DNA of 64,000 nt from Planctomycetota bacterium (GCA_965223845.1 CBDCXR010000004.1:3787334-3851333); one strand, 5' to 3'; positions 3,432 through 49,281 are shown, numbered from the stretch's first letter. Numbers and translations are program-made. Notes: a model not told the origin generated them from the sequence alone.

Positions 3432-4322
3432 TTAACCCGAGCTTCGCGGCGGCCGCGCGCGAAGAAGAGATTCCGCCGCCTTCGACAGCGCGGTCAATCG
3501 GCCGCCGTACGTCATTTGGATGTTCTCTTCGTTGAACGTCGTCGGCACGGGTCCCGCCGCGACGAGTCGCATGTTGAGAAAGATCACGTCGTCGAAGTAC
3601 GCCGCGACGGTTTGTAGGTCGTGGTGGACGGCGACGACCGTCCGACCCTCCGCGCGCAGCTTCTTCAGCAGGCCGAGAACCGCCTCCTCGGTCGCGGCGT
3701 CGACGCCCGCGAACGGCTCGTCCATCAGATAGAGCCGCGCGTCCTGCGCAAGCGCGCGAGCGAGGAACACGCGCTGCTGCTGGCCGCCGGAGAGCTGGTT
3801 GATCTGCCGCCGGGCGAACTCCTCCATGCCGACCTCGGCGAGGCAGCGCATCGCACGGTCACGATGCCGGCGAGTCGGCCACCGAATCCATCCCAGCTCG
3901 CCGTAGAGTCCCATCGTAACGACGTCGAGCGCCGTGGTCGGAAAATCCCAGTCGACGGTCTCTCGCTGCGGCACGTACGCGACCCACGATCGCCGCTCGG
4001 CGTACGGCGCGCCGAACACCTTGACCCAACCGGTCAGCGGACGCACGAGTCCGAGGATTCCCTTGAGCAGCGTACTCTTTCCTGCTCCGTTCGGTCCGAC
4101 GATGGCGATGAGCCGCCCGGGAGGAAAGGTGACGTCGACGTCCCAGAGGACGGGGTGCACGCCGTACGCGACGGTCATGTCGTGCACTTCCACCGCTGCC
4201 GGTGCGTTCTCGTCGGAGGACGAGGACGCCGCTGCGGTCGGCGCCTCATCGGCGCTAGGCTCCGCGCGCACCAAGCGAGCTTCTGCGTTGGGGCGATTCT
4301 CCTCGCGCTCCGCGCCGCTCAT
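3432..4322 (-). CDS. Metal ABC transporter ATP-binding protein (ZnuC/MntA-like)
   Basis: Walker A GPNGAGKST, signature LSGGQQQR, Walker B LYLMDEP. I trimmed the 298-aa Arg-rich N-terminal extension of ORF 3432..5216. The chosen ATG overlaps the substrate-binding-protein stop (ATGA at 4319-4322). The low-complexity about 48-aa N-terminus suggests the true start may be the later MTVAYG Met near 4178. Confidence 0.8.
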   Translation of the reverse strand: MSGAEREENRPNAEARLVRAEPSADEAPTAAASSSSDENAPAAVEVHDMTVAYGVHPVLWDVDVTFPPGRLIAIVGPNGAGKSTLLKGILGLVRPLTGWVKVFGAPYAERRSWVAYVPQRETVDWDFPTTALDVVTMGLYGELGWIRWPTRRHRDRAMRCLAEVGMEEFARRQINQLSGGQQQRVFLARALAQDARLYLMDEPFAGVDAATEEAVLGLLKKLRAEGRTVVAVHHDLQTVAAYFDDVIFLNMRLVAAGPVPTTFNEENIQMTYGGRLTALSKAAESLLRARPPRSSG

Positions 4323-5275
4323 CGCAGCGACTCCACGAGCGTCGTCACGTTGTGGCGAACCATCGTCGCGTAGGTGTCGGCGCCGCTCTCGGCCGGCCCC
4401 AAGGAGTCCGAGTAGAGCTCGCCCCCGACGGCGACCTCGTGGCCGCGGTCGCGGCACGCGGCCTGTACGGCCTCGATGCTCTTTCGCGGCACGCTGCTTT
4501 CGACGAAGATCGCTTTCAATTGTCGATCGATGATCACCTCGGTGACGCGCGCGATGTCGCGTAGACCGGCCTCCGCCGCCGTGTTGATGCCCTGGAGTCC
4601 GACGACCTCGACGCCGTAACGGTCTCCGAAGTAGCCGAATGCGTCGTGCGCCGTGACGAGAACGCGCGAGGATTCGGGGATCTTCCCGATTTCCTCCTTC
4701 ACCCACGCGTCGAGAGCCAGCAACTCGGCCGCGACCGCGCGGTAGCGCTCGTCGATCGCTTCCGCGTCCTCCGGCGACAGGGCTTTCAACTCCGTAGCGA
4801 CCGCACCGCAGACGATCGTCCACAGGGAGACGTCGAACCACACGTGCGGATCGACCGCCCCGTCCTCTCGGCGGACGCGATCCTCCGGCAGCGTCTCGGC
4901 AACCGCGACGACACGCCGGCCGGCGCCGGCGATGCGCTCGAGCACCGAGCCCATCTTCCCCTCGAGATGGAAGCCGTTGTAGAGAACGAGATCCGCGGCG
5001 CCGAGCCGGCGCACGTCGCTCTCCGTCGGATTGTAGAGGTGAGGATCGATCCCCGGGCGCATCAAGCCGACCACCTCGACCCCGTCCGGTGCGAGACGCT
5101 CGGCGATCTCTGCGATCATTCCCGTCGTCGCGACGACAACCGGACCGATGCGTTCCGCCCCGGGGGAGCAAGCGACGCCCGCCGCGAGCGCGAGACCGGC
5201 GAGCGCGCCCCGCCACCAGCGCCCGCGCGCACGTTCCGTGGATGCACCGAGCCGTCGAGTTCGCGCGTCGATCAT
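4319..5275 (-). CDS. Metal ABC transporter substrate-binding protein (cluster A-I; ZnuA/MntC/TroA family)
   Basis: N-terminal signal sequence, conserved His/Asp/Glu positions (DPHLY, DPHVW, HDAFGYF) and overall TroA-like length. It is the first gene of the minus-strand operon SBP-ATPase-permease-permease. Confidence 0.85.
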   Translation of the reverse strand: MIDARTRRLGASTERARGRWWRGALAGLALAAGVACSPGAERIGPVVVATTGMIAEIAERLAPDGVEVVGLMRPGIDPHLYNPTESDVRRLGAADLVLYNGFHLEGKMGSVLERIAGAGRRVVAVAETLPEDRVRREDGAVDPHVWFDVSLWTIVCGAVATELKALSPEDAEAIDERYRAVAAELLALDAWVKEEIGKIPESSRVLVTAHDAFGYFGDRYGVEVVGLQGINTAAEAGLRDIARVTEVIIDRQLKAIFVESSVPRKSIEAVQAACRDRGHEVAVGGELYSDSLGPAESGADTYATMVRHNVTTLVESLR

Positions 5276-17309: not shown

Positions 17310-18500
17310 TCAACAAGAGCCGTAGACACACTCCGTGTGCTCGTCGTCGACGGTCGGGTCCGGGCCGCAAGTCTCGAGACCCGGCGGAGCCGGAGGCGCC
17401 TCACCCTGAAAGAGGCTCCCGAGAAGATGGAGCGGGTCGTTCAGATTGATCCCGCCGTCGTCGTTCACATCGGAGGCATCGGGACAGGGGGATGGATCCG
17501 CGCTCTTGAAGAGGTGGTTCAGGAGAGAAATCGCATCCGAAATATTGACCGATCCGTCGGTGTCGAAGTCGCCGCGGCGAAAGTCGACGGCCGGTGCGTC
17601 GCCGATGATCGCCGTACAGGTGAGGCTACCGTCCTCGCCGCAAGCGATGTCGCAGACGGACGCGACGAGCGTGTAGACATTCTCTCCGGCAACCGGCTCG
17701 GAATCGGTGTACCCCGTCGACGTGACGCGCGGTTGGTTCTCGAGCGGCACTCCGTTTCGCGAGAGCTCGATGCTCGTGTACGCGGTCCCCGCCGGACGCG
17801 TCCAGCGAACGCGAACCGAGCCGTTGTCGCGGACTTCGCAGGTGATCTCGGTCGGGCAGGGATCCGCATCGTCGACGAAAAGCTCCGGCTCGAGAACGAA
17901 ATCCGAGCTGTCGAGCGACGTATTGTGTCCCTGAATCGCGATGACGTTTTCGCCCGCTTGAAGCGAAGCGATCGCCTCGCAGTTGCTGATCACTATGCTC
18001 TGAAACTGATTCTCGCTCGCCCGATTCGTCGCCGTGGCGTCGAACGGAACTGGATCGCCGGGGTTCCCCGGGAGACCGACGCGCGCGGCCTCGATTCCGT
18101 TGATGTACGCCACGAAGCCGTCGTCGTAGCGAATGAAGAGCCTCAGCTTCGAGACCGCACTCGGATCGTCGATAGTAAAGATGCTGCGGATGTAGAGGCT
18201 CCAGAACCCGGTGTTGCCTCCACCGCCCTGCATCCCGTCGATCATGGTGTTGATCCAGGCCTCGCCGTACCCGAGCGCACTCGGACCGAGATCCCAGCGC
18301 CGATCGTCGTACTCGGCGGTGAACCAATCGGGATCGGGCTCTTCCACGCCGGGAAAGTACGTCCAGAGGTCACCGGATTGGATCAGCTGGACTTCTTCCG
18401 TCTTCGCCGGGGCCGCGAACACGAACGCGACGACGAACGGGACCGCAGACCGAGCGAAGCGCTTCGCTCCCACAAGCCTCTTCGGATGAACAGCGCGCAT
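17310..18500 (-). CDS. Secreted multi-domain protein with a C-terminal dockerin-like double Ca-binding repeat
   Basis: A signal peptide (AVPFVVAFVFAAPA), a beta-sandwich-like region, an Ig/Fn3-like stretch, then DFDTDGSVNISDAISLLNHLF...DVNDDGGINLNDPLHLLGSLF followed by PPAPPG..CG. Confidence 0.65.
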   Translation of the reverse strand: MRAVHPKRLVGAKRFARSAVPFVVAFVFAAPAKTEEVQLIQSGDLWTYFPGVEEPDPDWFTAEYDDRRWDLGPSALGYGEAWINTMIDGMQGGGGNTGFWSLYIRSIFTIDDPSAVSKLRLFIRYDDGFVAYINGIEAARVGLPGNPGDPVPFDATATNRASENQFQSIVISNCEAIASLQAGENVIAIQGHNTSLDSSDFVLEPELFVDDADPCPTEITCEVRDNGSVRVRWTRPAGTAYTSIELSRNGVPLENQPRVTSTGYTDSEPVAGENVYTLVASVCDIACGEDGSLTCTAIIGDAPAVDFRRGDFDTDGSVNISDAISLLNHLFKSADPSPCPDASDVNDDGGINLNDPLHLLGSLFQGEAPPAPPGLETCGPDPTVDDEHTECVYGSC

Positions 18501-18835
18501 CACACCCTCCCTCACGAACGTTCGCGACGCATCGGCCGCCGGATCGTAGCGAATCGAATCTCAAACCGGACGGCTTTGCGAGACCACAGTCGCGCCGCTC
18601 AGCGAGCGGCTCCGACCGAGCGGCGCCTCCGAGACCCCTGGAGATCCGCCGCAGGCAAGCGTCCGAGCGCCTTCCATTTAATGAGCGCTCGCCTCCCCTG
18701 TAAAGAACGGCGACGTGTCGACGCCGACTTCACTTGCCGCTCGGCGACGAATCGGTCAACATTCCCAGCCCGCGGGCGAGAGCCATCTACGATGAGGAGC
18801 CCGCCGCGAGTCCACTACCGCAAGGCGAACACCGC

Positions 18836-35606: not shown

Positions 35607-35826
35607 CGATGAACTCCCGCCTTCGGTCGAGCGCGACAAGTGACCGAGAGAGCCTACCGGAGGGGCGTTCGAGGATTCAAGCCCGGCGCACGAGTCAGGA
35701 CGAGCGGGGCCGGTTTGCGTTTCGATGCGATTCGCGATGCGCGGCGCGTTCGTTGGCGGCGGACGACGCATCCCGTATTCTGGTCGTTCCTCGTCAGACC
35801 CCATGCGATCCGAACTGGAGACCACG

Positions 35827-37062
35827 ATGAAGCCGCGCGTCGCCGTAGTGGCCTGCCTCGATACGAAAGGGCGCGAAACGGGCTTTCTCGCGGATCGACT
35901 GCGCGCCGAGGGCTGCGACGTTCACGTCGTCGACGTCGGGATTCAGGGAGAGCCGGCGTTCCCCGCGGAGACGACGCGGGAGCAAGTCGCGACCGCCGGT
36001 GGCACGACTCTGGGCGAGCTCCGCGCGCGCGGCGACCGCGGTCACGCGGTCGCGCACATGGCTCGCGGAGCAGCGGAAGTGGTCCGCGAGCTGTACGCGG
36101 ACGGACGGATCGACGGCATCATCGGTGCGGGTGGGTCCGCCAACACGACGATCGCCACGCGCGCGATGCAGACGCTTCCCGTCGGCGTTCCGAAACTCAT
36201 GGTGTCGACTCTGGCCTCCGGCGACGTCTCGCCGTACGTCGACACGAAGGACATCACGATGATGTACTCGGTTGTCGACATCGCCGGAATCAATCGCATC
36301 TCCCGGCGGATCCTCGACAACGCTGCACGCGCCATCGCGGCGATGACTCGCGCGGCGTCCGCGCCGGAGCCGGAGGAAACAGACCGTCCGCTCATCGCCG
36401 CGACGATGTTCGGCGTCACGACTCCGTGCGTCACCGCGGCGAAAGAGCACCTCGAAGCGCGCGGGTATGAAGTCTTAGTGTTCCACGCGACCGGAAGCGG
36501 CGGACGGGCGATGGAAGGACTGATCGCCGACGGATTCATCCGCGGTGTACTCGACATCACGACCACCGAGCTCGCCGACGAGCTCGTCGGCGGAATCCTG
36601 AGCGCGGGTCCCGACCGCCTCACGGCGGCCGCGCGGCACGGCGTTCCGCAGATCGTCTCCATCGGAGCGGTCGACATGTGCAACTTCGGCCCGCGAGACA
36701 GCGTGCCGAACGAGTTTGCCGCGCGAACGTTTTACGAGCACAATCCGACGGTGACGCTGATGCGCACCACCGCCGAGGAAAACGCGGAGATCGGACGACG
36801 CATCGCCGCGCGCGTCGGACGCTCGCGCGGTTCCTGCCGCGTCGTCGTGCCGCGACGAGGTGTTTCCGCAATCTCGACGGCGGGGCAGCCGTTTCACGAT
36901 CCACACGCGGACGCGGCGTGCATCGACGCCTTGAGGCGCGAGCTCCCGGACGGCATCCCCTGCGTCGAGCTGGACGAGGACATCAATGCACCCGCATTCG
37001 CGCTCGCGTGCGCTGACGCACTCCTCGAGCTGCTCGACGAAACGCACGAACGACCCTCGTGA
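35827..37062 (+). CDS. UPF0261 family protein (Tm-1-like N-terminal domain)
   Basis: MKPRVAVVACLDTKG...GAGGSANTTIA... matches the UPF0261/Tm-1 family. It is followed 52 nt later by its usual TIM-barrel partner. Confidence 0.8.
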   Translation: MKPRVAVVACLDTKGRETGFLADRLRAEGCDVHVVDVGIQGEPAFPAETTREQVATAGGTTLGELRARGDRGHAVAHMARGAAEVVRELYADGRIDGIIGAGGSANTTIATRAMQTLPVGVPKLMVSTLASGDVSPYVDTKDITMMYSVVDIAGINRISRRILDNAARAIAAMTRAASAPEPEETDRPLIAATMFGVTTPCVTAAKEHLEARGYEVLVFHATGSGGRAMEGLIADGFIRGVLDITTTELADELVGGILSAGPDRLTAAARHGVPQIVSIGAVDMCNFGPRDSVPNEFAARTFYEHNPTVTLMRTTAEENAEIGRRIAARVGRSRGSCRVVVPRRGVSAISTAGQPFHDPHADAACIDALRRELPDGIPCVELDEDINAPAFALACADALLELLDETHERPS

Positions 37063-37114
37063 CGTCGAGCGAGCCATCGCATTCGAGTATCGGCAACCCA
37101 TCTGAGGAAATCCC

Positions 37115-37945
37115 ATGGCGATTCCGCGTTCCGAAATCCTCCGGCGACTCCGCGATCAGATCGACCGTCGGCGACCGATCATCGGCGCCGGAGCGGGGAC
37201 GGGAATCACCGCGAAGTTCGCCGAGAAGGGCGGCGTCGATCTCATCATCATCTACAATTCGGGGCGATACCGGATGGCCGGGCGCGGCTCGCTCGCCGGC
37301 CTTCTTCCCTACGGCGACGCGAACGCGATCGTCGTCGACATGGCGCGCGAGGTCCTTCCCGTCGTCGACGACGTTCCCGTGCTCGCCGGCGTCTGCGGGA
37401 CGGATCCCTTTCGTGTCATGGACGTCTTTCTGCCGGAGCTCCAGCGCATCGGATTCTCCGGCGTGCAGAACTTTCCCACGGTCGGACTCTACGACGGCAA
37501 TCTACGCACGAATCTCGAAGAGACGGGGATGGGATACCGACTCGAGGTCGAGCTCGTCCGGAAGGCGCGCGCCCTCGATCTCTTCACCGCTCCGTACGTA
37601 TTCTCTCCCGAAGATGCGGTCGCGATGGCCGACGCCGGCGCGGACGTCCTCGTCCCTCACATGGGCCTCACGACGAAAGGGGCGATCGGAGCGCAGAGCG
37701 CTCGCTCTCTCGAGGAGTGTCCGGCCGTCATTCAAGAGATGGCAGACGCCGCCAAAGCAGTACGAGACGACGTCATCATCCTCTGCCACGGGGGACCGAT
37801 CAGCGAGCCGGCCGACGCGGAGTTCATACTCAAAAGGACGCGAGGCGTGGACGGGTTCTTCGGCGCCTCGTCGATCGAGCGGCTCGCGACGGAGCCCGCG
37901 ATCACACGGCAGACGGAAGCGTTCAAGTCGATCGCGATCGATTGA
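37115..37945 (+). CDS. TIM-barrel PEP-hydrolase-like protein (Tm-1 C-terminal-domain homologue; partner of UPF0261)
   Basis: [40 protein letters not shown]...VQNFPTVGL... is characteristic of this family. Confidence 0.8.
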
Positions 37946-37959
37946 TCCACGAGCAGCGC

Positions 37960-39678
37960 TCAATCGATCCCGAGCTCGATCTGAAGCCGCTCGAGGAGGA
38001 CGCGCTCGTACTCCGTCATGCTCGTCGCATCTGAACTCGCCGCTCTCGCCGCCTCGAGCGCTTCGTCGATGTTCCGAAGCTGTTGGTGAGCGATCGCGAG
38101 ATAGAGGAGGTTCGCACCGGCGGGAAAGAGCTCGGCGGCGCGCGTGAGATTTGCGATCGCCTCTTCCTCGTCCGCACCGAGGCGGAACTGAATCCAACCG
38201 AGGGTGTTGAGGACGATGCCTTCGAGTTCGGCGGGATCGATGGATCCACCGAAACTCTCCCAAAACTCCGGACGGCGCCCTCGAACGAGGCGCAGAGCTT
38301 CGGTCGCAATCCTCTCGGCAGTGACGAGTTCATCGTCGTCCATCGCCATGAACCAAGCGAGGTTGTTCGCGTCGTGCGCGCGAGCGAGCCACTGTGCCTG
38401 CGCCTTTTTTCCGGCCTCGTATCGGTGGCGGTAGATCTCTACGATGGTCGCGCGCACTTTGGCTGCGCGCGTCTCGAACCGAACCGCGCGAAGCATGTCG
38501 TGAAGCACGAATCCGACTTCCGCTTTTGCCGTGCTCCCGAAGGCGTCCCAGATTCTGATCGCTTGGTCGAGCATTCGTTCGACCGTGCCTTCGAGCGCCT
38601 CGACCTCTTCCGGCGCCGCGTTCTCTGCGAGCGCATCGCGCAGCTCCTTTCGGGCTCGAATGGCCCGGTAGAGGGAGTCGCGGACGAAGTATTCGACGTA
38701 CTCGGGAACTTCGGTCACATCGACGAGACGCCGCACCGACTCGAGATCCGCGTCGCCCCGGTGGAGCGCGGCCCGGAGAGGACGCCACTCGCGCCAAACC
38801 GGATGATGGACGGGAAAGACGGAGTAGGTTCCGAAGAGCACAAACGCCGCCCAAACGGCGACCGTCGCCGCGGCGCGTACGGGTCGAACGCTCGGGATCG
38901 CGCGAGCGAACGCGAGGAATCCGAGGACGGATCCCGTGACGAATCCCCCGAGGTGCGCGCTCGTCGCAATCCGAACCTCATCGCCCGCGAACGAACGTAT
39001 GAGTGCGCCGGTGATGAAGTGGTCGGCGATGAGAATCGTCGGGACGATCAGGAAGTACCGGCCACGAACGCGGAGTCGACCGTTCCGGACGTATCCGAAC
39101 ATGGCGACGAGCAACGCGCCGACGAGACCGTAGAGCGCACCCGACGCTCCGACTCCCAACCCCGAGGAAAACGCCTGGAACGCGAATCCGCCGCCGAGGG
39201 CACTCGCGAGGTAGAGCGTGAGGAATCGCGCGCGTCCGAGCCGAGGCTCGAGACGGATTCCGAACAGGTAGACGCCGAGCATGTTGAGGGCGATGTGCCC
39301 GAAGAACCCGTGCAGAAACGTCGCGGTGAGGATCCGCCAGTATTCGCCGTCCCAAACGCTGATCTGGAACTGCGCCCCGAGCTGCTCGATCGCCGGACTG
39401 CGCGCTTGGAGCCCGTAGACGATCACGTTCGCGAGGATGATCGCCATCGTGACCGGCGCGCGGCCGCGCCGGCGAGGCCTCTGCACGTCGCGACGCGGCG
39501 ACGCCTCCTCGGAGAACGTGTCGGCCGAGCCGTCCTCGCTCGTCGGCGGCGAGCGATCGGTTCCGAGCGGTCCCGACGCGCGCGGCGAATGGATCTCGTG
39601 ACTCTCGCGGCCGGGAACGGGCGGCGGAGTCGACGATCCCAGATGGAACTTCTCGTCCTCTCGCTCAGGCGCGGGCAT
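37960..39678 (-). CDS. Rhomboid-family intramembrane serine protease with a C-terminal TPR-like soluble extension
   Basis: Catalytic GASGALYGLVGA (Ser) and AHLGGFVTG (His) in a 6-7 TM core, then about 280 aa of helical repeats. Pro-rich N-terminus. Confidence 0.75.
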   Translation of the reverse strand: MPAPEREDEKFHLGSSTPPPVPGRESHEIHSPRASGPLGTDRSPPTSEDGSADTFSEEASPRRDVQRPRRRGRAPVTMAIILANVIVYGLQARSPAIEQLGAQFQISVWDGEYWRILTATFLHGFFGHIALNMLGVYLFGIRLEPRLGRARFLTLYLASALGGGFAFQAFSSGLGVGASGALYGLVGALLVAMFGYVRNGRLRVRGRYFLIVPTILIADHFITGALIRSFAGDEVRIATSAHLGGFVTGSVLGFLAFARAIPSVRPVRAAATVAVWAAFVLFGTYSVFPVHHPVWREWRPLRAALHRGDADLESVRRLVDVTEVPEYVEYFVRDSLYRAIRARKELRDALAENAAPEEVEALEGTVERMLDQAIRIWDAFGSTAKAEVGFVLHDMLRAVRFETRAAKVRATIVEIYRHRYEAGKKAQAQWLARAHDANNLAWFMAMDDDELVTAERIATEALRLVRGRRPEFWESFGGSIDPAELEGIVLNTLGWIQFRLGADEEEAIANLTRAAELFPAGANLLYLAIAHQQLRNIDEALEAARAASSDATSMTEYERVLLERLQIELGID

Positions 39679-41146
39679 GCGAAGTCTCGCTCAACGATCC
39701 GCGGAGCTGGAGCTTCCGCCACACGTCCGGATGAAGAAGCGCCAGCACGGCGACGATTTCGAGACGTCCGACCCACATCGCGCCGGTGAGGACGAGCTTG
39801 CTCGCCGTGGGCAGGTCGGCAAAGTTCCCCATCGGTCCGACGCTCTGAAACCCCGGTCCGATGTTCCCGAGACACGCGAGCGATGCGGAAAACCCGGTGA
39901 CGAGATCGCTCCCGAAGAGGACGAGGACCGATCCAACGAGAAGATAGCCGAGGAGGTAGAGTCCCCAGAGTGTGACCACCGCGCGCAGAATCTCCGTGGG
40001 AATCGTCCGCTCGCCGTAGCGGATCGGCAACACCGCACGAGGGTGCAGCACTCGCGTGAGCTCGCTCCAAAAAAGCTTGAGCACGAGAAGGAGTCGAATC
40101 GCTTTCGCACCGCCCGCCGCAGATCCAGCGCAGCCTCCCACGAGCATCACGAGCACGAGCAGCACCTTCGCCGAGTCGCCCCAGAGAGCGTAATCCGCGC
40201 TCGCGTAGCCGGTGCTTGAGATCAAGCTCGCCGACTGAAAGAGCCCTAGGCGCACGCGCTCCGCCATCGACCCGCCATCGACGAGTGCGGCGACACCGAG
40301 ACCGCCAAAGACCGCGACACCGATGTAGAAGAGAAACTCGCCATCGCGAAAGACGACGCTCGGGCGCTGCGTGAACGCTCGGTACTGGAGTGTAAAGCTC
40401 GCTCCCGCCAGCAACATAAAGACGATGATAATCCACTCTGCGGCGGGATTCTGGTATCCCGCGATCGACTGCCCGTTCGGAGAGAATCCGCCGGCCGCGA
40501 GCGTCGTCAGGCTGTGGACGAACGCGTCGTAGGGCGACATCCCCGCGATGATGAGCGCAACCGTCTCGATGCCGGTGAGGATCGAGTAGAGCGCCCAGAG
40601 CCGCTGAGCGGTCGAGCGAATCTGCGGCGTGAGCGGCTCCGAAGCAGCGCCCGACGCCTCGGCGAAAAAGAGCTGGCGCCCGGCGATCCCGAGGCGCGGG
40701 AGAACCACGACGAAGAGCGCGATGACACCCAAGCCGCCGAACCACTGCGTCATCGCACGCCAGAGAAAAAACGCGCGCCCGTAGCGCGGATCATCGAAAT
40801 CCCGCAGGATCGTCGCGCCCGTCGTCGTGAATCCCGACATCGACTCGAAGAACGCATCGACGATCGGGAGACCGGAAAAGATGAAGGGCAGAGAGCCGAT
40901 GAGAGCGACGACGAGCCAGGTCCCCGAGACGACTCCCATCGCCTCGCTGCGGCGAAAGACGGAGACTCTACGGTAGCCGAGACTGAACAGAACGCCGATC
41001 GTCAACGCCGCGGCGAGTGCGATGGCAAACTGACCGACCGACGCCCACTCGCGATCGTACGCCGCGAGTAGCATCGGAAGGACGAAGGCGACGCTGAAGT
41101 AGCGAAGAAGGTGACCGATGACGCCGAGAACGAGGAGGATGCGCAC
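39665..41146 (-). CDS. trkH: Trk-type K+ uptake membrane subunit
   Basis: Four MPM repeats with selectivity-filter-like TTTG/STGY/AGGF/GNIGPG segments, downstream of trkA. Confidence 0.85.
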   Translation of the reverse strand: MRILLVLGVIGHLLRYFSVAFVLPMLLAAYDREWASVGQFAIALAAALTIGVLFSLGYRRVSVFRRSEAMGVVSGTWLVVALIGSLPFIFSGLPIVDAFFESMSGFTTTGATILRDFDDPRYGRAFFLWRAMTQWFGGLGVIALFVVVLPRLGIAGRQLFFAEASGAASEPLTPQIRSTAQRLWALYSILTGIETVALIIAGMSPYDAFVHSLTTLAAGGFSPNGQSIAGYQNPAAEWIIIVFMLLAGASFTLQYRAFTQRPSVVFRDGEFLFYIGVAVFGGLGVAALVDGGSMAERVRLGLFQSASLISSTGYASADYALWGDSAKVLLVLVMLVGGCAGSAAGGAKAIRLLLVLKLFWSELTRVLHPRAVLPIRYGERTIPTEILRAVVTLWGLYLLGYLLVGSVLVLFGSDLVTGFSASLACLGNIGPGFQSVGPMGNFADLPTASKLVLTGAMWVGRLEIVAVLALLHPDVWRKLQLRGSLSETSHARA

Positions 41147-41319
41147 GGCTAGAAGCTCGCTCCACGGGCGCCCCGGGCCGGACGCCGGTGGATCCGCCGC
41201 GACGGTCGTCGCTGCGCGCGCGCGCCATCGCGACGACTCGCGAGACGGAGCGAGCTCGACGTGGAGGGGACCGACCGTCGTTCAATGCGAATCGATGGGC
41301 TCACCGTGCTCACGACTCC

Positions 41320-42663
41320 TCACACCGTCCGACTCAGGAAGAAATTCCGCGCTTCTTCCTCGAACTCGCGCGTGCAAAAGAGAAGAACTCGATCGTCCGC
41401 GAGGATCTCGTCGCTTCCCTTCGGAATGATGACGTCGGCACCGCGAAGGATCGCGCCGACGATCACGAACTCCGGGACCTTCAGCGAAAAGAGCGGGGTC
41501 CCCGGATAGTCGCTCGGGAGTCGCACCTCGAGCACCATCGCGTCGCCGTGCTCGAGCTCGGCGAGAAGCTCCGTGCCGGAATCGGAGATGCACTTGAGCA
41601 CACTCCGGATCGCCGCGCCGCCCGCCGAACGCACGACGTCGATGCCGACGCGCTCGAACAGGCGCTCGTTCGCTTGCGAACCCGCGCGCGTGACGATTCG
41701 AGGCACGTTGAGCTGCTTCGCGAGCAACGAGACGAGGAGATTCTTCTCGTCGTTCGACATCACCGCGATGAGGACGCTGGCGTCCGCGATGCGCTCCTCT
41801 TCGAGGAGATCGATGTCGGCCCCGTCGCCGTGGAGGACGAGAGAATTGAGCACGCGAGCCACTTCTTCGCAGCGCGTGCGATCCGACTCGATCAACTTCA
41901 CCTGCCAGCCGGCGTCTTCCATTCCCAGCGCGACCGCCAATCCGACCTCGCCCCCGCCGACGACGGTCGCCCGGCGCGCATCGCGCGAGCCGTTCTCCGA
42001 TTTCAAGTATTTGAAGAGGAGCCGGTTCATGTCACCGGGGTTTCCCATCGCGGTGATCTTGTCGCCGGGCTGGAACTCCGTGTTGCCCTTCGGGATGAAG
42101 ATCTCGTCGCCCCGACGAGCCATCACGAGGACGACTCCGCTCGGCACTCCGACTTCCATGAGCCGTCCGCGCGTGACCGGAGCGCCCTCCTCGACGGCGT
42201 GCCGGAACAACTTGACCTTTCCGCCGACGAACGCCTCGACGTCGAGTGCACCCGGGACCGCGACGATCCGCAGGATCTCCTTCGCGAGTTGCTCCGCCGG
42301 CCGGAGCACGTGATCGATGCCGAGCGATTCTGCGAGCGCGGCCGCGCTCCCGACCGCGCCGTGAAAGTCCGATCGGAAGAGGAGGCAGATCGTTTTCTCC
42401 ACGCCGAGCCGCTTCGCGACCACGCAGGCGACGAGATTCTGCTCGTCGTGAGCCGAACACGCGATGAAGACGTCCGCGCTCGCGATCCTCGCGCGGTGGA
42501 GAGTCTCCGTCGACGAGATCAGCCCCGGGACCGTCTCGACATCGAGTCGATCGAATCTCCCGCCGCTTTCCTTCGACGTGACGAGGACGACGCCGTGGTC
42601 GGTCATCGTCGCCTCCGCGATGCGGAAGGCGATCTCGTCGTCTCCAGCGATGACGATATTCAT
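41320..42663 (-). CDS. trkA: Trk system NAD-binding regulatory subunit (two RCK/TrkA-N and TrkA-C domains)
   Basis: Two Rossmann motifs, MNIVIAGDDEIAF and ATVVGGGEVG, and two TrkA_C regions. Confidence 0.9.
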   Translation of the reverse strand: MNIVIAGDDEIAFRIAEATMTDHGVVLVTSKESGGRFDRLDVETVPGLISSTETLHRARIASADVFIACSAHDEQNLVACVVAKRLGVEKTICLLFRSDFHGAVGSAAALAESLGIDHVLRPAEQLAKEILRIVAVPGALDVEAFVGGKVKLFRHAVEEGAPVTRGRLMEVGVPSGVVLVMARRGDEIFIPKGNTEFQPGDKITAMGNPGDMNRLLFKYLKSENGSRDARRATVVGGGEVGLAVALGMEDAGWQVKLIESDRTRCEEVARVLNSLVLHGDGADIDLLEEERIADASVLIAVMSNDEKNLLVSLLAKQLNVPRIVTRAGSQANERLFERVGIDVVRSAGGAAIRSVLKCISDSGTELLAELEHGDAMVLEVRLPSDYPGTPLFSLKVPEFVIVGAILRGADVIIPKGSDEILADDRVLLFCTREFEEEARNFFLSRTV

Positions 42664-42932
42664 GGGCTACGAATGCGCACGGTCGGTGCTCGGACTCGGC
42701 GGCGGGTTCCCGAACGGTCGGCTCTCGTCGCCCGGCGGGAGCGAGCGAGGGCTCGGGTACACGTGGCCCGTCACGTTTTCGGAACAGAGACGGTAGGAGA
42801 CGTCCCAAACCCTGTCAAGCGCCCTCGGCTCACGCCGGACCCGAGCACGGGAGTCCCACCCTCCTTCTTCGGCGGCCGCCATCTGCTCGCTTGAACCGAT
42901 CGTCGGGTCTCACCGCTTCGAACCGCACCCGA

Positions 42933-44372
42933 TCAAGCGAGGAAGCCGAGAGGAGCGAAGTACCCGTCGCGATCGTCGGCCGCGAGACGCCCGTAGCCGG
43001 GAATGATCTCGCCGATCCTGGACGCCGGATCCCCGAGATGTTGCGTGAGGATCTCGTGGTAGACCGCGCGAAAATCCGTGCGGTGCGCCAGATACCGGCC
43101 GTTTGCGGTGGAGAAGAGATCGCCGTTCTCCCAGCGGTCCGGAGAACAGTTGTAGACGCCCCCGCGCACTCCGCCTCCGAGGGCGAACAGACAGGCGGCC
43201 TCGCCGTGATCGGTCCCCCCGTTCGCGTTCTGGAGCGATGTGCGGCCGAATTCCGTCAGGGTGACGATCAGGACGTCGTTCCAGATCGGCTTCAAGTCGA
43301 AGTAGAGCGCCGTGAGCGCCGCGCCGAGATCGCGAAGAAGTCGAGGAAACGCGGTGACCTGATTCCCGTGCGTATCGTAGTTCCCTTGGTTGCAGCCCGT
43401 GATCTGCAGTCCGTCGACCTGCTTGAGGAGCCGCGCGCAGTCCGCTACGAATCCCGCAAACGCTCGGTCGCTGATGGCAGCGTAGTGCGGCACGGCGTTC
43501 GGCTCCGGATCGTACGGCGCCTCGCGGACGTGAGTCTCGAAGAACTCGAGACTCTCGAGCAGGGTACGCCCGGTCGAGTAGGCGAGCGTCTCGTATGGGA
43601 TCGTCCGCGTAAGACTTCGACCGTACGCGCCCTTGAGGCCGGATCCGATCGGCGGCGCAGCGTTCGGAAACTCGCCGAGCGGCACTCCGGCGGGGAGGGC
43701 GTAGTCGGCGACGGAGCGCAAGACCGGAACGAGGGTCGGTCCCTTCATGAGAACGACTTGGTTGCCGCTGAGTGTCGCGGCGCGCATCGGGTTCGCAGGA
43801 TCAGGATACGCCGTCAGGTAGCGGTTGAACACGCCGTCCTCGCGTGTCGTCTCGCCCGGGAGGCCATTCTCCCAAAACTGCTGGCTCGAAAAGTGCGAGC
43901 GGTTCTGCTCGGCGTAGCCGACGCGGTGAAGAACAGCGAGCTGCGGCCCGCGTTCGTCGAGCCGACCATGAAAGATATCAGCGAGCCGCGGTGCGCCGTC
44001 GCCCGACTCATCGACCGTCGGGTAGAAGTGAGCGAATCCGTTGAGATCGTGCGTCCGCGCCCGGTCCGGACGGAGCTGTGGACGTGCCTCCTCGAACGTC
44101 GGCGCACGCCCGGAGATCCCGGGGTCGCCGTAAGGAATCACCGCCTGGACGCCGTCGAGTCCTCCGCGAAGGAAGATGAAGAGGATCTTCTTCCGCCTCC
44201 CGGCGGGATCGACCGCCGCTGGCTCGCCCGCAAGAGCCGTACCGATCGTCCGGTGAAAAGGCGCCGGAACGCCGAAGCCCAACGCGGCGAGAGACGCCGC
44301 ACTCCAGCGGCAGAATCTGCGCCGACCGAATCGACGAAGCGGATTCCAGATTCGTTCTTCAGATGAATTCAT
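42933..44372 (-). CDS. DUF1501 domain protein (sulfatase-like, TAT-exported)
   Basis: Twin-arginine signal RRFGRRRFCRWSAASLAALGF and conserved DUF1501 regions (FLRGG.DG, GG.DHG). ATGA overlap with the DUF1800 gene stop at 44369-44372. Confidence 0.85.
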   Translation of the reverse strand: MNSSEERIWNPLRRFGRRRFCRWSAASLAALGFGVPAPFHRTIGTALAGEPAAVDPAGRRKKILFIFLRGGLDGVQAVIPYGDPGISGRAPTFEEARPQLRPDRARTHDLNGFAHFYPTVDESGDGAPRLADIFHGRLDERGPQLAVLHRVGYAEQNRSHFSSQQFWENGLPGETTREDGVFNRYLTAYPDPANPMRAATLSGNQVVLMKGPTLVPVLRSVADYALPAGVPLGEFPNAAPPIGSGLKGAYGRSLTRTIPYETLAYSTGRTLLESLEFFETHVREAPYDPEPNAVPHYAAISDRAFAGFVADCARLLKQVDGLQITGCNQGNYDTHGNQVTAFPRLLRDLGAALTALYFDLKPIWNDVLIVTLTEFGRTSLQNANGGTDHGEAACLFALGGGVRGGVYNCSPDRWENGDLFSTANGRYLAHRTDFRAVYHEILTQHLGDPASRIGEIIPGYGRLAADDRDGYFAPLGFLA

Positions 44373-46798
44373 TGGAGCTGAAATTGAGGCAAACTAGCGA
44401 GGAATGCGGTCACGGCGCGGACGCGATCGACGGCTCCCGCTTCGCGGTAGATCTCGAGCGCGAGCTCGCGATGCTCGACGGGGAGGGCTTGGCCGTGGAG
44501 GAGGAGCGCGAAAAACTCGACCACTCGCTCCCCGCTGTCGAGCGCCCACTGCCGCTGAAACGAGAGCGGATTCCACACGAACCGCCGATCGGCCGGAGAC
44601 CCGGGGTGGATTCCGCGGCTGAGATACTTGAGCCGCTCGAGGAGTCCGATCGTGTGCATCCAGTCGAAGCCGAGCTCCGACTCCCCCGTCGGATCGGCGA
44701 ACTCGAAGAGCTCCATTCCCGCGAGAGTGAGCTCTCGCGACGCGCGAATTCCGTCGTTGACGCTCAAGCCTCCGTCTAGCGCCCGTACCGCGCTCACAAT
44801 CGTCTCGAGCGGTGTCTTTACCTTGGCGCAGGCGTACTCGAGGCTCAGGAACTCGTCCGAGCGAAGGATCGTCCGCACGACCTCGCGCAAGTCTCCGTTC
44901 GAGTGCGCCCACGCGTCGATGACGTCGACGAGAAGATCCGGCTCTTGGTACTCGCGCGGAGAGATTCGCTCGTCCGCGTTCGTGTCGAGTCGGCGAAAGA
45001 CCGCGAGCGGTCTCCCATTCGGAAGAACGAGCGGGATCGGCATCTCCCACTCGTCGAGATCGAGCAATCCGTCACCATCGGAATCGACGCTCTCGAAGTG
45101 CGCAGCGAGCTCGGCGCGGAGAGGGTATGTGCGAGGAAGAGCGGAAAGATCGTCCGTCACGAAGAGCTGGATCAGCTTCGTTCCGACGAACTTCGCCGTG
45201 TCGCGGAAATGCGCGATTCGTCGCAAGACGAGGTCGAACTCCTCGACCGCCCGCTCCGGCGTCCGCTGATCTTCGTTGGCGGGAATCGTGAGCGCCGCCC
45301 GCGGCGGAACGGGGTTCCCGAGCGAGTCGACGCCCCCGTAGCGCGGGAGGAACAGATCTTTTCGCCCCCAATCGTGGCCGCCGTCTCGGAGTCCGGGATG
45401 GCCGAACGCGAAGGCCCACACGTACGTCCCGTCGTCCCAATTCGCCCGCGCCGGGAAGGCAAACGGCCGAGGCTCGCGCCCATCGATCGGGAATCGCGGG
45501 AGGTCGGGCTGGTCGTGAAAGCCGATGTCGTGCGGAAAAAAATGCCGCCGCTCGACCCACGCGACCGTCCAGCCCGTAAGGATGCGCGAGAGCTCCTCGA
45601 TGTCGCGCTGAGTGTACAGATGGTCCACGCCGAGCGTCGACAGCTCAAGCACTTCGCGCGCGTAGTTCTCATTCGGGGCTGCGGCGGTATTCTCGAAGCC
45701 GTTCAAGTAGATGAGCATCGCAACGCTCTTCGCCGAACCTTCGACGAGATCCGCAAAGCTCCCGAGCGCGTGACGCCGAAAGTACTCGTACTCTCGGCGC
45801 TCCATGTCCGCGGCGACAGCGAGCTGAGCGGCGCCGGTTCCGTACTTCCAGTACGCGACCGGAGCGAACTCGAACTCGGCGGGACTCAGCGTGCCGTCGG
45901 CCGTCGAGCGACCGAACTCCGCGAAGCTACGCACACCGGGATGCGCCGCGCGAAACTCACTCCACTCGCCGGCGTCGATCGTGCCGGAGCCGTCGCCATC
46001 GACGTGCCGAAACAGCTCCGCCGAACCGCGCGCGGCGACCCCCCCGCGTCGCATCCGTCCAAAAAAGAGGTCGCGGAGGGTCGTGATCTGAGTGTGAAAG
46101 TGGTTGTTCCAAAACAGCGCGAGGACGTGGAGCAGCTGCCACCGGCTCGAACGCGCGTTTTCGATCAGCATCGCTTCGAGGCGCTCGATGGGCGCGCCCG
46201 ACACCGGATCGCGAAAGCCGATGCGGAGACGATCGATGCGCTGCGCGAGCTCGGGTTCGTGGCCGACCGGATCGTAGTCGACCGGGGGGCGCAGCTGATC
46301 CTCGATATACCGCTCGAGATCGGCGCGCGTTTGAATCCGGGCGAGCAACTCCTCGTTTGGGCCGAACGTGATTCTTCTCAGTGCATGAGCGATGAGCGCG
46401 GTGTCGTCCGGGCACAGCTCGTACTTCGAGCAGCCTAGGTACCCAGAGTTGCGATCGACGCCGCAGGCGACCGGCCCCGGAGGAGCGGGCGGTGGCAGGT
46501 CGCCGAAGAGATGGCCGAGGAGATAGAGCGCATCGGAAATGTCGACGCCATCGTCGTCGTTCGCGTTGGCGGCTTCGACGCACGTCCCGCGACGGCTCTC
46601 CGCGAAGAGTGCGTTCAACACGAAGATCGGATCGGCGACGTTGACCGCACCGTCTGCGTTGGCGTCGCCGCGGCGAAACTGAACCCGGCGAACGAAGGAA
46701 TCTCCGAGCGTCGCGACCAACGGAAGGAGCGTCAAGCAGGTGACGCGCGCCGCGACCGCCAACCCTCCCCCGAACATCCTCTGTCGCTGCTCGCGCAT
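44369..46798 (-). CDS. DUF1800 domain protein with an N-terminal dockerin-like double Ca-binding repeat
   Basis: DUF1800 signature NENYAREVLELSTLGVDHLYTQRDIEELSRILTGWT. The N-terminus has RGDANADGAVNVADPIFVLNALF...ANDDDGVDISDALYLLGHLF followed by PPPAPPGPVACG. Start at MREQRQRMFGGGLAVAARVTCLTLLPLVA. Confidence 0.8.
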   Translation of the reverse strand: MREQRQRMFGGGLAVAARVTCLTLLPLVATLGDSFVRRVQFRRGDANADGAVNVADPIFVLNALFAESRRGTCVEAANANDDDGVDISDALYLLGHLFGDLPPPAPPGPVACGVDRNSGYLGCSKYELCPDDTALIAHALRRITFGPNEELLARIQTRADLERYIEDQLRPPVDYDPVGHEPELAQRIDRLRIGFRDPVSGAPIERLEAMLIENARSSRWQLLHVLALFWNNHFHTQITTLRDLFFGRMRRGGVAARGSAELFRHVDGDGSGTIDAGEWSEFRAAHPGVRSFAEFGRSTADGTLSPAEFEFAPVAYWKYGTGAAQLAVAADMERREYEYFRRHALGSFADLVEGSAKSVAMLIYLNGFENTAAAPNENYAREVLELSTLGVDHLYTQRDIEELSRILTGWTVAWVERRHFFPHDIGFHDQPDLPRFPIDGREPRPFAFPARANWDDGTYVWAFAFGHPGLRDGGHDWGRKDLFLPRYGGVDSLGNPVPPRAALTIPANEDQRTPERAVEEFDLVLRRIAHFRDTAKFVGTKLIQLFVTDDLSALPRTYPLRAELAAHFESVDSDGDGLLDLDEWEMPIPLVLPNGRPLAVFRRLDTNADERISPREYQEPDLLVDVIDAWAHSNGDLREVVRTILRSDEFLSLEYACAKVKTPLETIVSAVRALDGGLSVNDGIRASRELTLAGMELFEFADPTGESELGFDWMHTIGLLERLKYLSRGIHPGSPADRRFVWNPLSFQRQWALDSGERVVEFFALLLHGQALPVEHRELALEIYREAGAVDRVRAVTAFLASLPQFQLQ

Positions 46799-46975
46799 TC
46801 GAGTTTCGTCTCTCGCTTCGCCGGCCGATGGCACCGGTGATCTAACCGCGCATCCTCCGTCTTTCTTGTACCCGAGAACGATCTCTCGTGCGCCTCCGAA
46901 CCGCGCGCGACCTTGGCTCGGGTCGGAACTCGTGAGACGATGGCGAGAACGAAACGGCTCCGAGTTCCATCGACA

Positions 46976-48526
46976 ATGCGCTTCACCCTCGCGTTCTGCG
47001 CTCTAACTCTGGTCGTCGCGTTCTCGTCCATCGCGCGAGCCGAAGACTTCGTTCGCGGTGATGGGAACGGCGACGCGGCGGTCGACATCGCCGATCCGGT
47101 TTTCGTCTTTCTCGCCCTCTTCGGCAGCGAAGGTCCTCTACCCTGCGCCGACGCGGCGGACGCCAACGACGACGGCGCTGTCGACGTCGCGGACGTCGCC
47201 TATCTCCTCAACTATCTCTTCGGCGACGGGACCGCCCCGCCGCCGCCGGGTGACGGCCCATGCGGAGGCGTCGACCCGACGCTCGACGAGCTCGCGTGTT
47301 CGGAGCCGCTCGAACCGCCGCTCGCGAGCGGACCACCGAGGCTCCGCTGGACGGCGACGTACGCGCCGGCACGGGGACTGGAGCAGCGAACTCGGCTCCC
47401 TCTTTCGACGGAAAGCGACGACACGGTCCGCGCCGACCTCGGCGTCGCGTTTTCCCTGCTTCTCGAGGCTTCGGCACATCCGGACGGCCGCGCGCCCGTC
47501 GAGATTCTGCTCGACCCTCACACTGTCGATCCGGAAGTCCTCGCCGTACGCTGCGATCGCGATCTCCTCTCGCCCGAGGGGATCGTCCCGGCCGGCACCA
47601 ATCTCGCCCCGTGGTTCTCACGCGAGACCGAGGGCTGGATCGACCCGATCTACCTCACCCAGGAGGTCGCGCTCCGGGTCGATCGCCTCACCTCGGTAGG
47701 ACCGATCGATCCGGGTCGCCACGTGTTCACAGCGGAAGCGGTCGACACCGCTTGCGCTCGTGCGTCTCCTGCTGCGATCGCGATCGAGATCGTACCGTCG
47801 CTCGCCCCGCGGATCTCCATCGCCGCGATCGACGAGACCGGAGCTCCGCACCCCCACCACGCGGGGAGCGGCAACCTTCGCGTTTCGCCCGGAGCGGACG
47901 ACATCCTCCTCGAGATCGATGCCACCCCGAACGCCGCCGTTGAGGACGCGCCCATCGACGCGGAGAGTCTACACGTCTCGTCCTCGCCGCCGGTGGACGG
48001 CGCGGCCGATCTCACGGAACGATTCGAGCGCGTCGCACCGACTCTCTGCCGATGGCGGGGCCGCGTCCCCGTGCGCGAGCTCACGCCCGGGAACACGACG
48101 ATCACGGTTTCGCTTCGGTCGGCGAATGACGCCGCGGCGAGCAGCGTCCTCTTCACGATCGAGCTCGAGGTGTCGTACGCCCGCGACGTCCAGTCGATTT
48201 GGAACGCCAACTGCTCCGGCTGCCACGAGGGGCCGAACGCGGCGCGCGGACTCGAGCTCGTCGCGCCCGGAGAAGACCCGGAGGAAATTCGGCGCTCCTT
48301 CGTCAACGTGTTCGCTGCGGGGCCGTCGATCGAATCGGTCGCGCCGGTTCACGTCCGCCCGTTCTTTCCGCGCCGGAGCTACCTCTTTCACAAGCTCGAG
48401 GGCACGCACCTCGACGAGCCCGTCCGCGGCAGCGGCGAACGCATGCCGGCGGACGGTCCGCCGTACTTGAGTGAGGCTGCCATCCACACGGTCCGGAGCT
48501 GGATCGTCCAGGGCGCCGCTCCGTAA
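46976..48526 (+). CDS. Secreted protein with an N-terminal dockerin-like double repeat and a C-terminal PSCyt1-type (Planctomycete cytochrome c) heme-binding domain
   Basis: Signal peptide MRFTLAFCALTLVVAFSSIARA. Dockerin-like VRGDGNGDAAVDIADPVFVFLALF...DANDDGAVDVADVAYLLNYLF followed by PPPPGDGPCGG. C-terminal VQSIWNANCSGCHEG...MPADGPPYLSEAAIHTVRSWIVQGA carries CxxCH. Confidence 0.7.
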   Translation: MRFTLAFCALTLVVAFSSIARAEDFVRGDGNGDAAVDIADPVFVFLALFGSEGPLPCADAADANDDGAVDVADVAYLLNYLFGDGTAPPPPGDGPCGGVDPTLDELACSEPLEPPLASGPPRLRWTATYAPARGLEQRTRLPLSTESDDTVRADLGVAFSLLLEASAHPDGRAPVEILLDPHTVDPEVLAVRCDRDLLSPEGIVPAGTNLAPWFSRETEGWIDPIYLTQEVALRVDRLTSVGPIDPGRHVFTAEAVDTACARASPAAIAIEIVPSLAPRISIAAIDETGAPHPHHAGSGNLRVSPGADDILLEIDATPNAAVEDAPIDAESLHVSSSPPVDGAADLTERFERVAPTLCRWRGRVPVRELTPGNTTITVSLRSANDAAASSVLFTIELEVSYARDVQSIWNANCSGCHEGPNAARGLELVAPGEDPEEIRRSFVNVFAAGPSIESVAPVHVRPFFPRRSYLFHKLEGTHLDEPVRGSGERMPADGPPYLSEAAIHTVRSWIVQGAAP

Positions 48527-48705: not shown

Positions 48706-49281
48706 TTGACCATGCGCCGAAAAACGTGGCTCGGCGGTGTGCTCTCTGTGCTCGCCCTCACGCTTCTCATCTCGCCCGACGGCCGCGCTCGTTCCCAGTC
48801 GGGGGACGCGGGTGACGACGGCCCGAAGAAACCCGAGACCGCGACCGTCGACCGCGCCGCGCTCGAAGCAGAGTTCGCCAAGACGCTCGAAAACGCCGTC
48901 CTCGTCGGCAAATTTCGGCTGATCTCGAACGACGAGATCGGCGACGAGAAGCCCGAGCGCTACGAGATTCGGTCGGCGAAGAAGCTCGCGGGCGATCGCT
49001 GGATCATCACCGCTCGCGTCAAGTACGGCACGCTCGACGTCGAGTTTCCGTTCCCGGTCGACGTCGTGTGGGCCGGCGATACACCGATCATCTCTGTCAC
49101 CGACGTGCGCTTTCTCACGTACGGTCCGTACACCGCTCGCGTCATGGTCTACCGCGGACTCTACACCGGAACCTGGTTCGGTCCCGGTCACGGCGGACTC
49201 ATGAGCGGCCGCGTCGAACGCGCCGCAGCGGACGCGAAGGACGCGAAAGACGCAGAACGCGCCGAGCCGAAATCGGAGTAG
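48706..49281 (+). CDS. Secreted hypothetical protein
   Basis: Signal peptide MRRKTWLGGVLSVLALTLLISP and normal amino-acid composition. I do not recognise a family. Confidence 0.6.
   Translation: MTMRRKTWLGGVLSVLALTLLISPDGRARSQSGDAGDDGPKKPETATVDRAALEAEFAKTLENAVLVGKFRLISNDEIGDEKPERYEIRSAKKLAGDRWIITARVKYGTLDVEFPFPVDVVWAGDTPIISVTDVRFLTYGPYTARVMVYRGLYTGTWFGPGHGGLMSGRVERAAADAKDAKDAERAEPKSE

Follow-up and report, generated by a model that had tools for sequence, protein, structure and literature searches.

A dockerin-tagged cytochrome gene lies divergently beside a DUF1800-DUF1501 gene pair in Planctomycetota

A 64,000-nucleotide stretch of DNA from a Planctomycetota bacterium (GCA_965223845.1, CBDCXR010000004.1:3787334-3851333; the whole stretch is called the window here, G+C approximately 66%) contains a pair of genes for DUF1800 and DUF1501 proteins and, divergent from them, a gene for a small secreted cytochrome. 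The question raised by this locus is whether the cytochrome belongs with the pair as a working module, and whether the whole is a rearranged form of the PSCyt/DUF1501 modules. The three genes of the flagged interval were picked out by their third-position G+C and are arranged as follows.

42933-44372, minus strand: DUF1501 gene, 479 amino acids
44369-46777, minus strand: DUF1800 gene, 802 amino acids according to the public gene call
44369-44372, minus strand: ATGA overlap of the DUF1800 stop and the DUF1501 start, read directly as caATGAat
46778-46975, no strand assigned: intergenic region from which the DUF1800 and cytochrome genes diverge, presumed to hold the promoters of both
46976-48526, plus strand: secreted cytochrome gene, 516 amino acids by translation and also in the public gene product

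A first-pass annotation of this DNA had described the ATGA coupling, the divergent gene with a CxxCH motif and an N-terminal dockerin-like module shared by the DUF1800 and cytochrome proteins, and all of these were found where it had placed them. The Pfam identities that it had proposed for the pair were also recovered, with PF07394 (DUF1501) matching at 86.9 bits (cut-off 27) and PF08811 (DUF1800) at 242.1 bits (cut-off 26.1). We read the locus as a conserved planctomycete three-gene module that would form a calcium-dependent assembly outside the cytoplasm, where the dockerin-tagged cytochrome would serve the DUF1800/DUF1501 enzyme, and we judge the chances of this reading to be about even. 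The trio elaborates, in a lineage-specific way that had not been described before, on a gene pair that is known but uncharacterised.

To follow the conservation of the trio, a profile of the DUF1800 subfamily that bears EF-hands was run against species-representative genomes, which gave 27 loci, all from metagenome-assembled genomes (MAGs) of Planctomycetota. One extra cytochrome locus was taken from metagenomes, and the neighbours were then read by tblastn. The divergent trio was observed in 16 Planctomycetota loci (the window, L007, L010-L018, L020, L025, L027, L030 and L036), which bears out the earlier expectations that the adjacency is kept in related genomes and that a haem protein is regularly associated with a DUF1501-containing pair. 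These loci correspond to approximately twelve lineages on the DUF1800 tree, some of them being close relatives, and the proteins have diverged to 33-45% identity for the cytochrome and about 48-58% for DUF1800. Among the 14 loci whose sampling did not depend on the cytochrome, namely those with an adjoining DUF1501 or in the same part of the DUF1800 tree (L018 is cut before DUF1501), 13 carry the cytochrome gene and only L009 has the pair without it.

The order DUF1800 then DUF1501 is the same in 14 related loci, and the cytochrome gene is divergent in every trio locus, with 177-837 nucleotides separating the points at which the aligned protein regions start. The overlap of DUF1800 and DUF1501 was also observed in L007; in most other loci the two open reading frames (ORFs) are approximately 20-90 nucleotides apart. 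The three genes alone are shared widely among the trio loci, whose flanks vary: TrkA/TrkH genes are found in the window and L025 only, in L007 a DUF7133/HEAT/cytochrome protein follows, and the loci from marine MAGs are bordered by other genes. The closest relative, L025 on a 9.18-Mb MAG chromosome, has the same order of rhomboid, TrkH, TrkA, DUF1501 and DUF1800 followed by the divergent cytochrome. Furthermore, a derived clade of DUF1800 paralogues (L019, L021-L024, L026 and L028) is found with neither the cytochrome nor an adjoining DUF1501, and this joint loss speaks for the module. The adjacency of the trio is thus conserved well beyond chance. It had at one point been judged unconserved from six full-length homologues found with a word index, whose neighbours were rhomboid, LTD/CotH and CCP_MauG genes with one beside DUF1800/DUF1501; sampling with the DUF1800 profile overturned this, as the word index had under-reported the family.

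The first-pass annotation took the locus to be a shuffled PSCyt/DUF1501 module, with DUF1800 in place of DUF1549/1553 and the PSCyt1 domain transferred to a protein of its own. Such modules of the Planctomycetes-Verrucomicrobia-Chlamydiae (PVC) group were described by Kamneva et al. 2012 (PMC3542564) and include four-gene clusters with a separate PSCyt1/WD40 protein, an arrangement that lends the shuffling idea some support; electron transport has been guessed at for them (PMC3542564, PMC5615132). Both systems join a DUF1501 protein of the twin-arginine (Tat) type with a CxxCH haem domain and protein-interaction domains, both are presumed to be redox systems, and the haem domain of the window protein seems remotely PSCyt1-like. 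However, the Pfam scan found no PSCyt2 (DUF1549) or PSD1 (DUF1553) domain in the window locus, in which a protein of its own bears the haem domain at the C-terminus and the DUF1501 is of another subfamily.

The lineage of the DUF1501 protein speaks against shuffling. Its match to PF07394 covers only profile positions 242-332 of 390, about a quarter of the model, whereas canonical PSCyt-partnered DUF1501 proteins score approximately 475 bits over positions 1-390; because of this partial match we class it, by sequence, in a divergent DUF1501 subfamily. It aligns end to end with the DUF1800-partnered DUF1501 of a Rhodanobacteraceae genome (29% over 418 amino acids, E 5e-33) but over only 87-107 residues with a planctomycete PSCyt-partnered DUF1501, and it can be placed in the DUF1800-partnered lineage. 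The DUF1800 profile did not resemble a PSCyt2/PSD1 protein (probability 0.1%), and the proposed interchangeability of DUF1800 and DUF1549/1553 thus loses its footing. In addition, a predicted DUF1800-DUF1501 operon has already been reported across Proteobacteria (PMC5122149); the pairing is a separate one, widespread and independently documented. The same gene order was observed in the Rhodanobacteraceae genome, and other planctomycete DUF1800 variants also begin with a dockerin-like module and have the same downstream DUF1501. Canonical modules even coexist with the DUF1800 paralogues, as the contigs L022 and L032 both have, about 4 kb downstream of the paralogue region, a PSCyt1-PSCyt2-PSD1 protein and after it a DUF1501 that scores approximately 475 bits. 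We therefore consider a shuffled origin quite unlikely.

On these grounds (the DUF1501 lineage, the lack of DUF1800-PSCyt2/PSD1 similarity, the operon in the literature and the other planctomycete variants) the DUF1800-DUF1501 pair is most readily taken as an independent, older unit that is not derived from the PSCyt/DUF1501 modules. The proteobacterial operon resembles the window pair in its gene order, its tight coupling and the Tat motif on DUF1501, but the gammaproteobacterial locus has neither the dockerin-like module, nor the three inserted EF-hand loops, nor the divergent dockerin-cytochrome gene that are all present in the planctomycete. What sets the window lineage apart is its dockerin module, its EF-hand insertions and the cytochrome that accompanies the pair. 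The cytochrome looks like a lineage-specific addition to a pre-existing pair and would be at most a functional parallel to the fused PSCyt1.

The cytochrome protein begins with a signal peptide of the Sec type, which ends ARA|ED, and continues with a dockerin-like module with two loops of the D-x-N-x-D-G type, two immunoglobulin-like (Ig-like) domains and a monohaem domain. Its parts are given below, the model confidence being the predicted local distance difference test (pLDDT) of AlphaFold2 (AF2).

47048-47299, plus strand: dockerin-like module with calcium loops DGNGDAAVDIAD and DANDDGAVDVAD
47333-48175, plus strand: two tandem Ig-like beta-sandwich domains forming a spacer (AF2 pLDDT mostly above 80, residues 120-400)
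48161-48523, plus strand: C-terminal monohaem c-type cytochrome domain of approximately 120 residues, with CSGCH at 48212-48226 and RMP, holding the candidate axial Met, at 48443-48445

The middle region of approximately 280 residues matched no Pfam family, and a Foldseek search of the model against the PDB returned generic tandem Ig domains only. CSGCH is the sole CxxCH of the protein and lies approximately 100 residues from the C-terminus. The first-pass annotation had called this domain PSCyt1. Its cytochrome c character was upheld, as the isolated domain passes Cytochrome_CBB3 (PF13442) at 28.6 bits against a cut-off of 27; membership in PSCyt1 was not, as PF07635 (gathering score 22 bits) gave no match at E<=10 for the isolated domain or any of 7 family members. 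A remote similarity to PSCyt1 was nevertheless observed with hhalign (E 2.5e-4, probability 42.6%, 93 columns including CxxCH, MP and WI..G), and the probability was 98.6% when a bridging sequence was added. Based on these profile comparisons we assign the haem domain to the class I c-type cytochromes as a probable remote relative of PSCyt1 that falls outside PSCyt1 by the Pfam test.

At E<=1e-3 an exhaustive search with the haem domain gave 943 relatives, while the full Ig-Ig-cytochrome architecture was found in only about a dozen clusters at 50% identity; the domain type is far more widespread than this architecture. Ten relatives from outside the family were hand-picked from the top of the search and scanned: six pass Pfam PSCyt1, several of them also Cytochrome_CBB3, and seven score as Cytochrome_CBB3, PSCyt1 or Cytochrom_C. 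Other relatives are named mono- or dihaem cytochrome c in some sources. Domains of this type are also repeated 5-9 times in giant proteins of 960-1830 amino acids (P0237, P0239 and P0240); of the two scanned, P0237 bears CHRD as well, and P0239 fn3 and purple-acid-phosphatase N-terminal domains.

It could be argued that the CxxCH is a structural or metal-binding cysteine motif without haem and that the protein is a dockerin-anchored Ig adhesin or scaffold, since AF2 confidence is low over residues 414-495 and the full-length protein scores only 22.8-23 bits (22.8 for Cytochrome_CBB3), below the Pfam cytochrome cut-off of 27. Low confidence is expected, however, for an apo-cytochrome modelled from a 7-sequence alignment. 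CxGCHE and the distal MP were found to be invariant in 21 loci, and this invariance, together with the score of the isolated domain and the cytochrome families among its relatives, makes a haem-free protein very improbable. Haem is accordingly the ligand that we expect the domain to carry.

The DUF1800 protein carries a signal peptide of the Sec type, its core is all-alpha, and its match to PF08811 falls in three stretches interrupted by insertions. The maximal ORF is 44369-46834, with alternative starts at ATG 46798 and GTG 46834 upstream of the public call start at 46777. The AF2 model is of good quality (pLDDT 84.6, predicted template modelling score 0.81); no solved structure matches the core, and a PDB sequence search gave EF-hands only. 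The features of the protein that set it apart are the following, with residue numbers counted on the maximal ORF.

46424-46699, minus strand: N-terminal dockerin-like module with two calcium-binding loops DANADGAVNVAD and NANDDDGVDISD, followed by a proline-rich, cysteine-containing linker
45953-46018, minus strand: first EF-hand loop DGDGSGTIDAGEW, an insertion within the DUF1800 core (Pfam EF-hand_5 and EF-hand_1, residues 273-294)
44945-45112, minus strand: EF-hand pair DSDGDGLLDLDEW … DTNADERISPREY, likewise an insertion within this core (EF-hand matches, residues 575-630)

The Pfam EF-hand models score above their gathering thresholds in this protein, and the first loop was found to be conserved throughout the subfamily. 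The dockerin-like modules of the DUF1800 and cytochrome proteins share 51% identity over 84 residues and have the dockerin fold with its two calcium-binding loops. Both score under the gathering threshold of Pfam Dockerin_1 (PF00404), at 14.2-19.1 bits against 22.9 (the cytochrome copy at 19.1), and the cytochrome-family profile matches cellulosomal dockerins in the PDB at E 2e-4 to 1e-3. The term dockerin-like thus seems justified for the shared module. Its nearest known counterparts are the cellulosomal type I dockerins (PF00404) and non-cellulosomal dockerin-like modules, from which it differs in being N-terminal, in the conserved cysteine-containing proline-rich linker that follows it and in its score below the Pfam cut-off. 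The conserved linker cysteines of these Sec proteins fit an oxidising compartment. The carriers of the module also differ, being the cytochrome and DUF1800 proteins rather than glycoside hydrolases. A third copy was observed in the window at nucleotides 17343-17624, at the C-terminus of a 401-amino-acid ORF (17310-18515, minus strand), where it passes Dockerin_1 at 25.7 bits; apart from this module that ORF has no Pfam match.

The DUF1501 protein carries a Tat signal motif, RRRFCRWSAASLAALG (residues 17-32), and the form RRxF(L/C)(K/R)xSA is kept in 13 DUF1501 orthologues as a motif match. Invariant motifs are RGGxD (D73), RSHF (S159), DxH (333-335), EFGR (374-377) and DH (388-389), all of which are common to the gammaproteobacterial homologue too. 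Residues D73, S159, D333/H335 and D388/H389 would fit a metal and nucleophile site of the alkaline-phosphatase type. The Pfam clan of DUF1501, which we take to be alkaline-phosphatase/sulfatase-like, could not be confirmed for the window subfamily; canonical DUF1501 proteins gave weak Sulfatase matches (E 3e-4), and a PDB sequence search with the window protein gave no match. DUF1501 is the likely catalytic subunit of the pair.

These features suggest how the trio might work. The three genes would encode an extracytoplasmic protein assembly that is specific to Planctomycetota. DUF1501, exported folded through the Tat pathway, would be the catalytic subunit, with the all-alpha DUF1800 as its obligatory partner. 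In the lineage of the window, DUF1800 would have gained the N-terminal dockerin-like module and the inserted EF-hands, while the divergent gene would supply a secreted monohaem cytochrome that bears the same module and a spacer of two Ig domains. The dockerin modules may then co-locate the cytochrome and the DUF1800/DUF1501 enzyme in a calcium-dependent manner, with a cohesin-like partner or the cell envelope as the meeting place. Once there, the cytochrome would pass electrons to or from the enzyme, which is the role presumed for the fused PSCyt1 in the PSCyt/DUF1549/DUF1553 and DUF1501 modules.

Several observations weigh against this three-gene module. Sharing the dockerin-like module is weak evidence for a specific partnership because the module is very common in diverse Planctomycetota proteins (at least 294 metagenome matches, besides the third copy in the window), and no cohesin domain was found among the scanned window proteins. 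The cytochrome gene also occurs elsewhere, beside rhomboid, LTD/CotH giant or CCP_MauG genes in L001, L002-4, L006 and L008, and standalone relatives of its haem domain in Gemmatimonadota and Nannocystis were not found beside DUF1800/DUF1501. Conversely, the pair is found without the cytochrome in L009 and, outside Planctomycetota, in the Rhodanobacteraceae genome. As for chemistry, hhalign detected no similarity between the DUF1501 subfamily profile and a planctomycete sulfatase (probability 0.3%), and to our knowledge hydrolases of the alkaline-phosphatase superfamily normally need no electrons. The literature search found no paper giving a function to DUF1800 or DUF1501.

Much of this could be accommodated by inherited synteny, in which the cytochrome and the pair are neighbours by descent in one clade and the cytochrome serves other redox partners. 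The four distinct loci with other neighbours, the pair of L009, the gammaproteobacterial pair with no cytochrome neighbour and the generic nature of the dockerin-like module are all as this explanation would have them. Against it, the adjacency persists at 33-45% identity while the other flanks turn over, the orientation is divergent throughout and the spacer short, and the cytochrome and the adjoining DUF1501 disappear together in the paralogue clade. A second kind of carrier with the same tag was moreover observed with a different DUF1800/DUF1501 lineage. We therefore regard mere inheritance of the neighbourhood as possible but doubtful.

This second carrier is found in L123:2148-12391 (GCA_036125855.1, JAYZTT010000016.1), where two tandem units of dockerin-DUF1800 (1024 amino acids) and DUF1501 (457 amino acids) are followed by a 304-amino-acid secreted protein with two cupredoxin-like domains and a C-terminal dockerin-like module. 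The cupredoxin matches Copper-bind at 31.1 bits (cut-off 21.2) and plastocyanin at E 9e-6, and its second domain has the plastocyanin ligand motif yfCipHvtfgM (C-x-P-H-x4-M). It would be a copper carrier placed similarly to the haem carrier of the window; that this parallel is a single locus counts against the module. L008:1-3540 has the cytochrome gene in a divergent arrangement with a gene for a di-haem cytochrome c peroxidase (CCP_MauG), which the end of the contig truncates. Di-haem cytochrome c peroxidases draw electrons from small cytochromes or cupredoxins, and it is plausible that the L008 enzyme is an alternative electron acceptor for the same carrier. Because of the dockerin-tagged cupredoxin of L123 and the pairing with CCP_MauG in L008, the role of the cytochrome as an electron carrier gains support. 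A broader proposal is that DUF1800/DUF1501 is a redox-dependent system wired to interchangeable carriers (haem c or type-1 copper) through a dockerin-type, non-cellulosomal, calcium-dependent complex in the periplasm or at the cell surface; this we hold to be rather unlikely at present.

The surroundings of the trio were also inspected. No sigma-70-type consensus was found in the intergenic region 46778-46975, and a scan for promoter and terminator consensus sequences gave nothing above shuffled controls. On the 3' side of DUF1501 the neighbours are TrkA, TrkH and a rhomboid protease, and on the 3' side of the cytochrome gene are a 191-amino-acid secreted ORF and a Reg_prop/PAS histidine kinase. 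In L002:1907-5360 and L006:2661-6525 the rhomboid gene abuts the cytochrome gene, whereas the window (37960-46834) and L025 hold TrkH, TrkA, DUF1501 and DUF1800 between the two. The difference resembles the insertion or deletion of four genes between anchors that are conserved, and in L002 and L006 the block seems to have been lost or moved.

The ORF downstream of the cytochrome gene was considered as a fourth member of the module and rejected, as it is confined to the closer relatives.

48706-49281, plus strand: small secreted protein, 191 amino acids, downstream of the cytochrome gene; accessory and outside the conserved core

It matched no Pfam family. Homologues with 48-57% identity were observed after or near the cytochrome gene only in L001, L002-4, L005, L006 and L025, with none in the marine MAG loci and none beside standalone cytochromes.

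Dockerin-tagged giants of the CotH type, DUF1800 proteins and the cytochrome were seen to recur in changing combinations. In L001:1893-9614, for example, the cytochrome gene is divergent beside a gene for an 1847-amino-acid LTD/CotH/TIG protein with the same dockerin-like module at its end. The DUF1800 of the paralogue clade follows an ORF of 1458-1460 amino acids in L022:5903-12966, L023:5391-12451, L028:103-7166 and L032:5897-12982, and the one scanned, that of L023, is a secreted LTD/CotH/Laminin_G_3/CHB_HEX_C protein.

The remainder of the window is ordinary chromosomal content. Two adjacent ABC-3 metal-transport permease genes (1909-3228 and 749-1912, both on the minus strand) have C-terminal regulator-like extensions, one being Fe_dep_repr_C, the dimerisation domain of iron-dependent repressors (91.9 bits), and the other a weak MarR-type match; a ZnuA-type binding protein is encoded nearby at 4319-5275. 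Adjoining UPF0261 and PEP_hydrolase-like genes at 35725-37945 (plus strand) gave very strong Pfam matches and are unrelated to the trio.

DUF1501 ranks among the protein families that have multiplied most in Planctomycetota and Verrucomicrobia, and DUF1800-DUF1501 pairs occur in many phyla. The locus described here offers a compact case, with one enzyme pair and a small cytochrome that is separate and easily assayed, and with a hypothesis of dockerin- and calcium-mediated meeting built in. If a cytochrome or cupredoxin does serve the pair, the chemistry of DUF1501 would be one of electron transfer and not of simple hydrolysis. This would reframe both the DUF1800/DUF1501 pair and the PSCyt/DUF1501 modules, and it would extend dockerin assembly past polysaccharide degradation. 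The trio would become more interesting still if the link to an electron carrier generalises.

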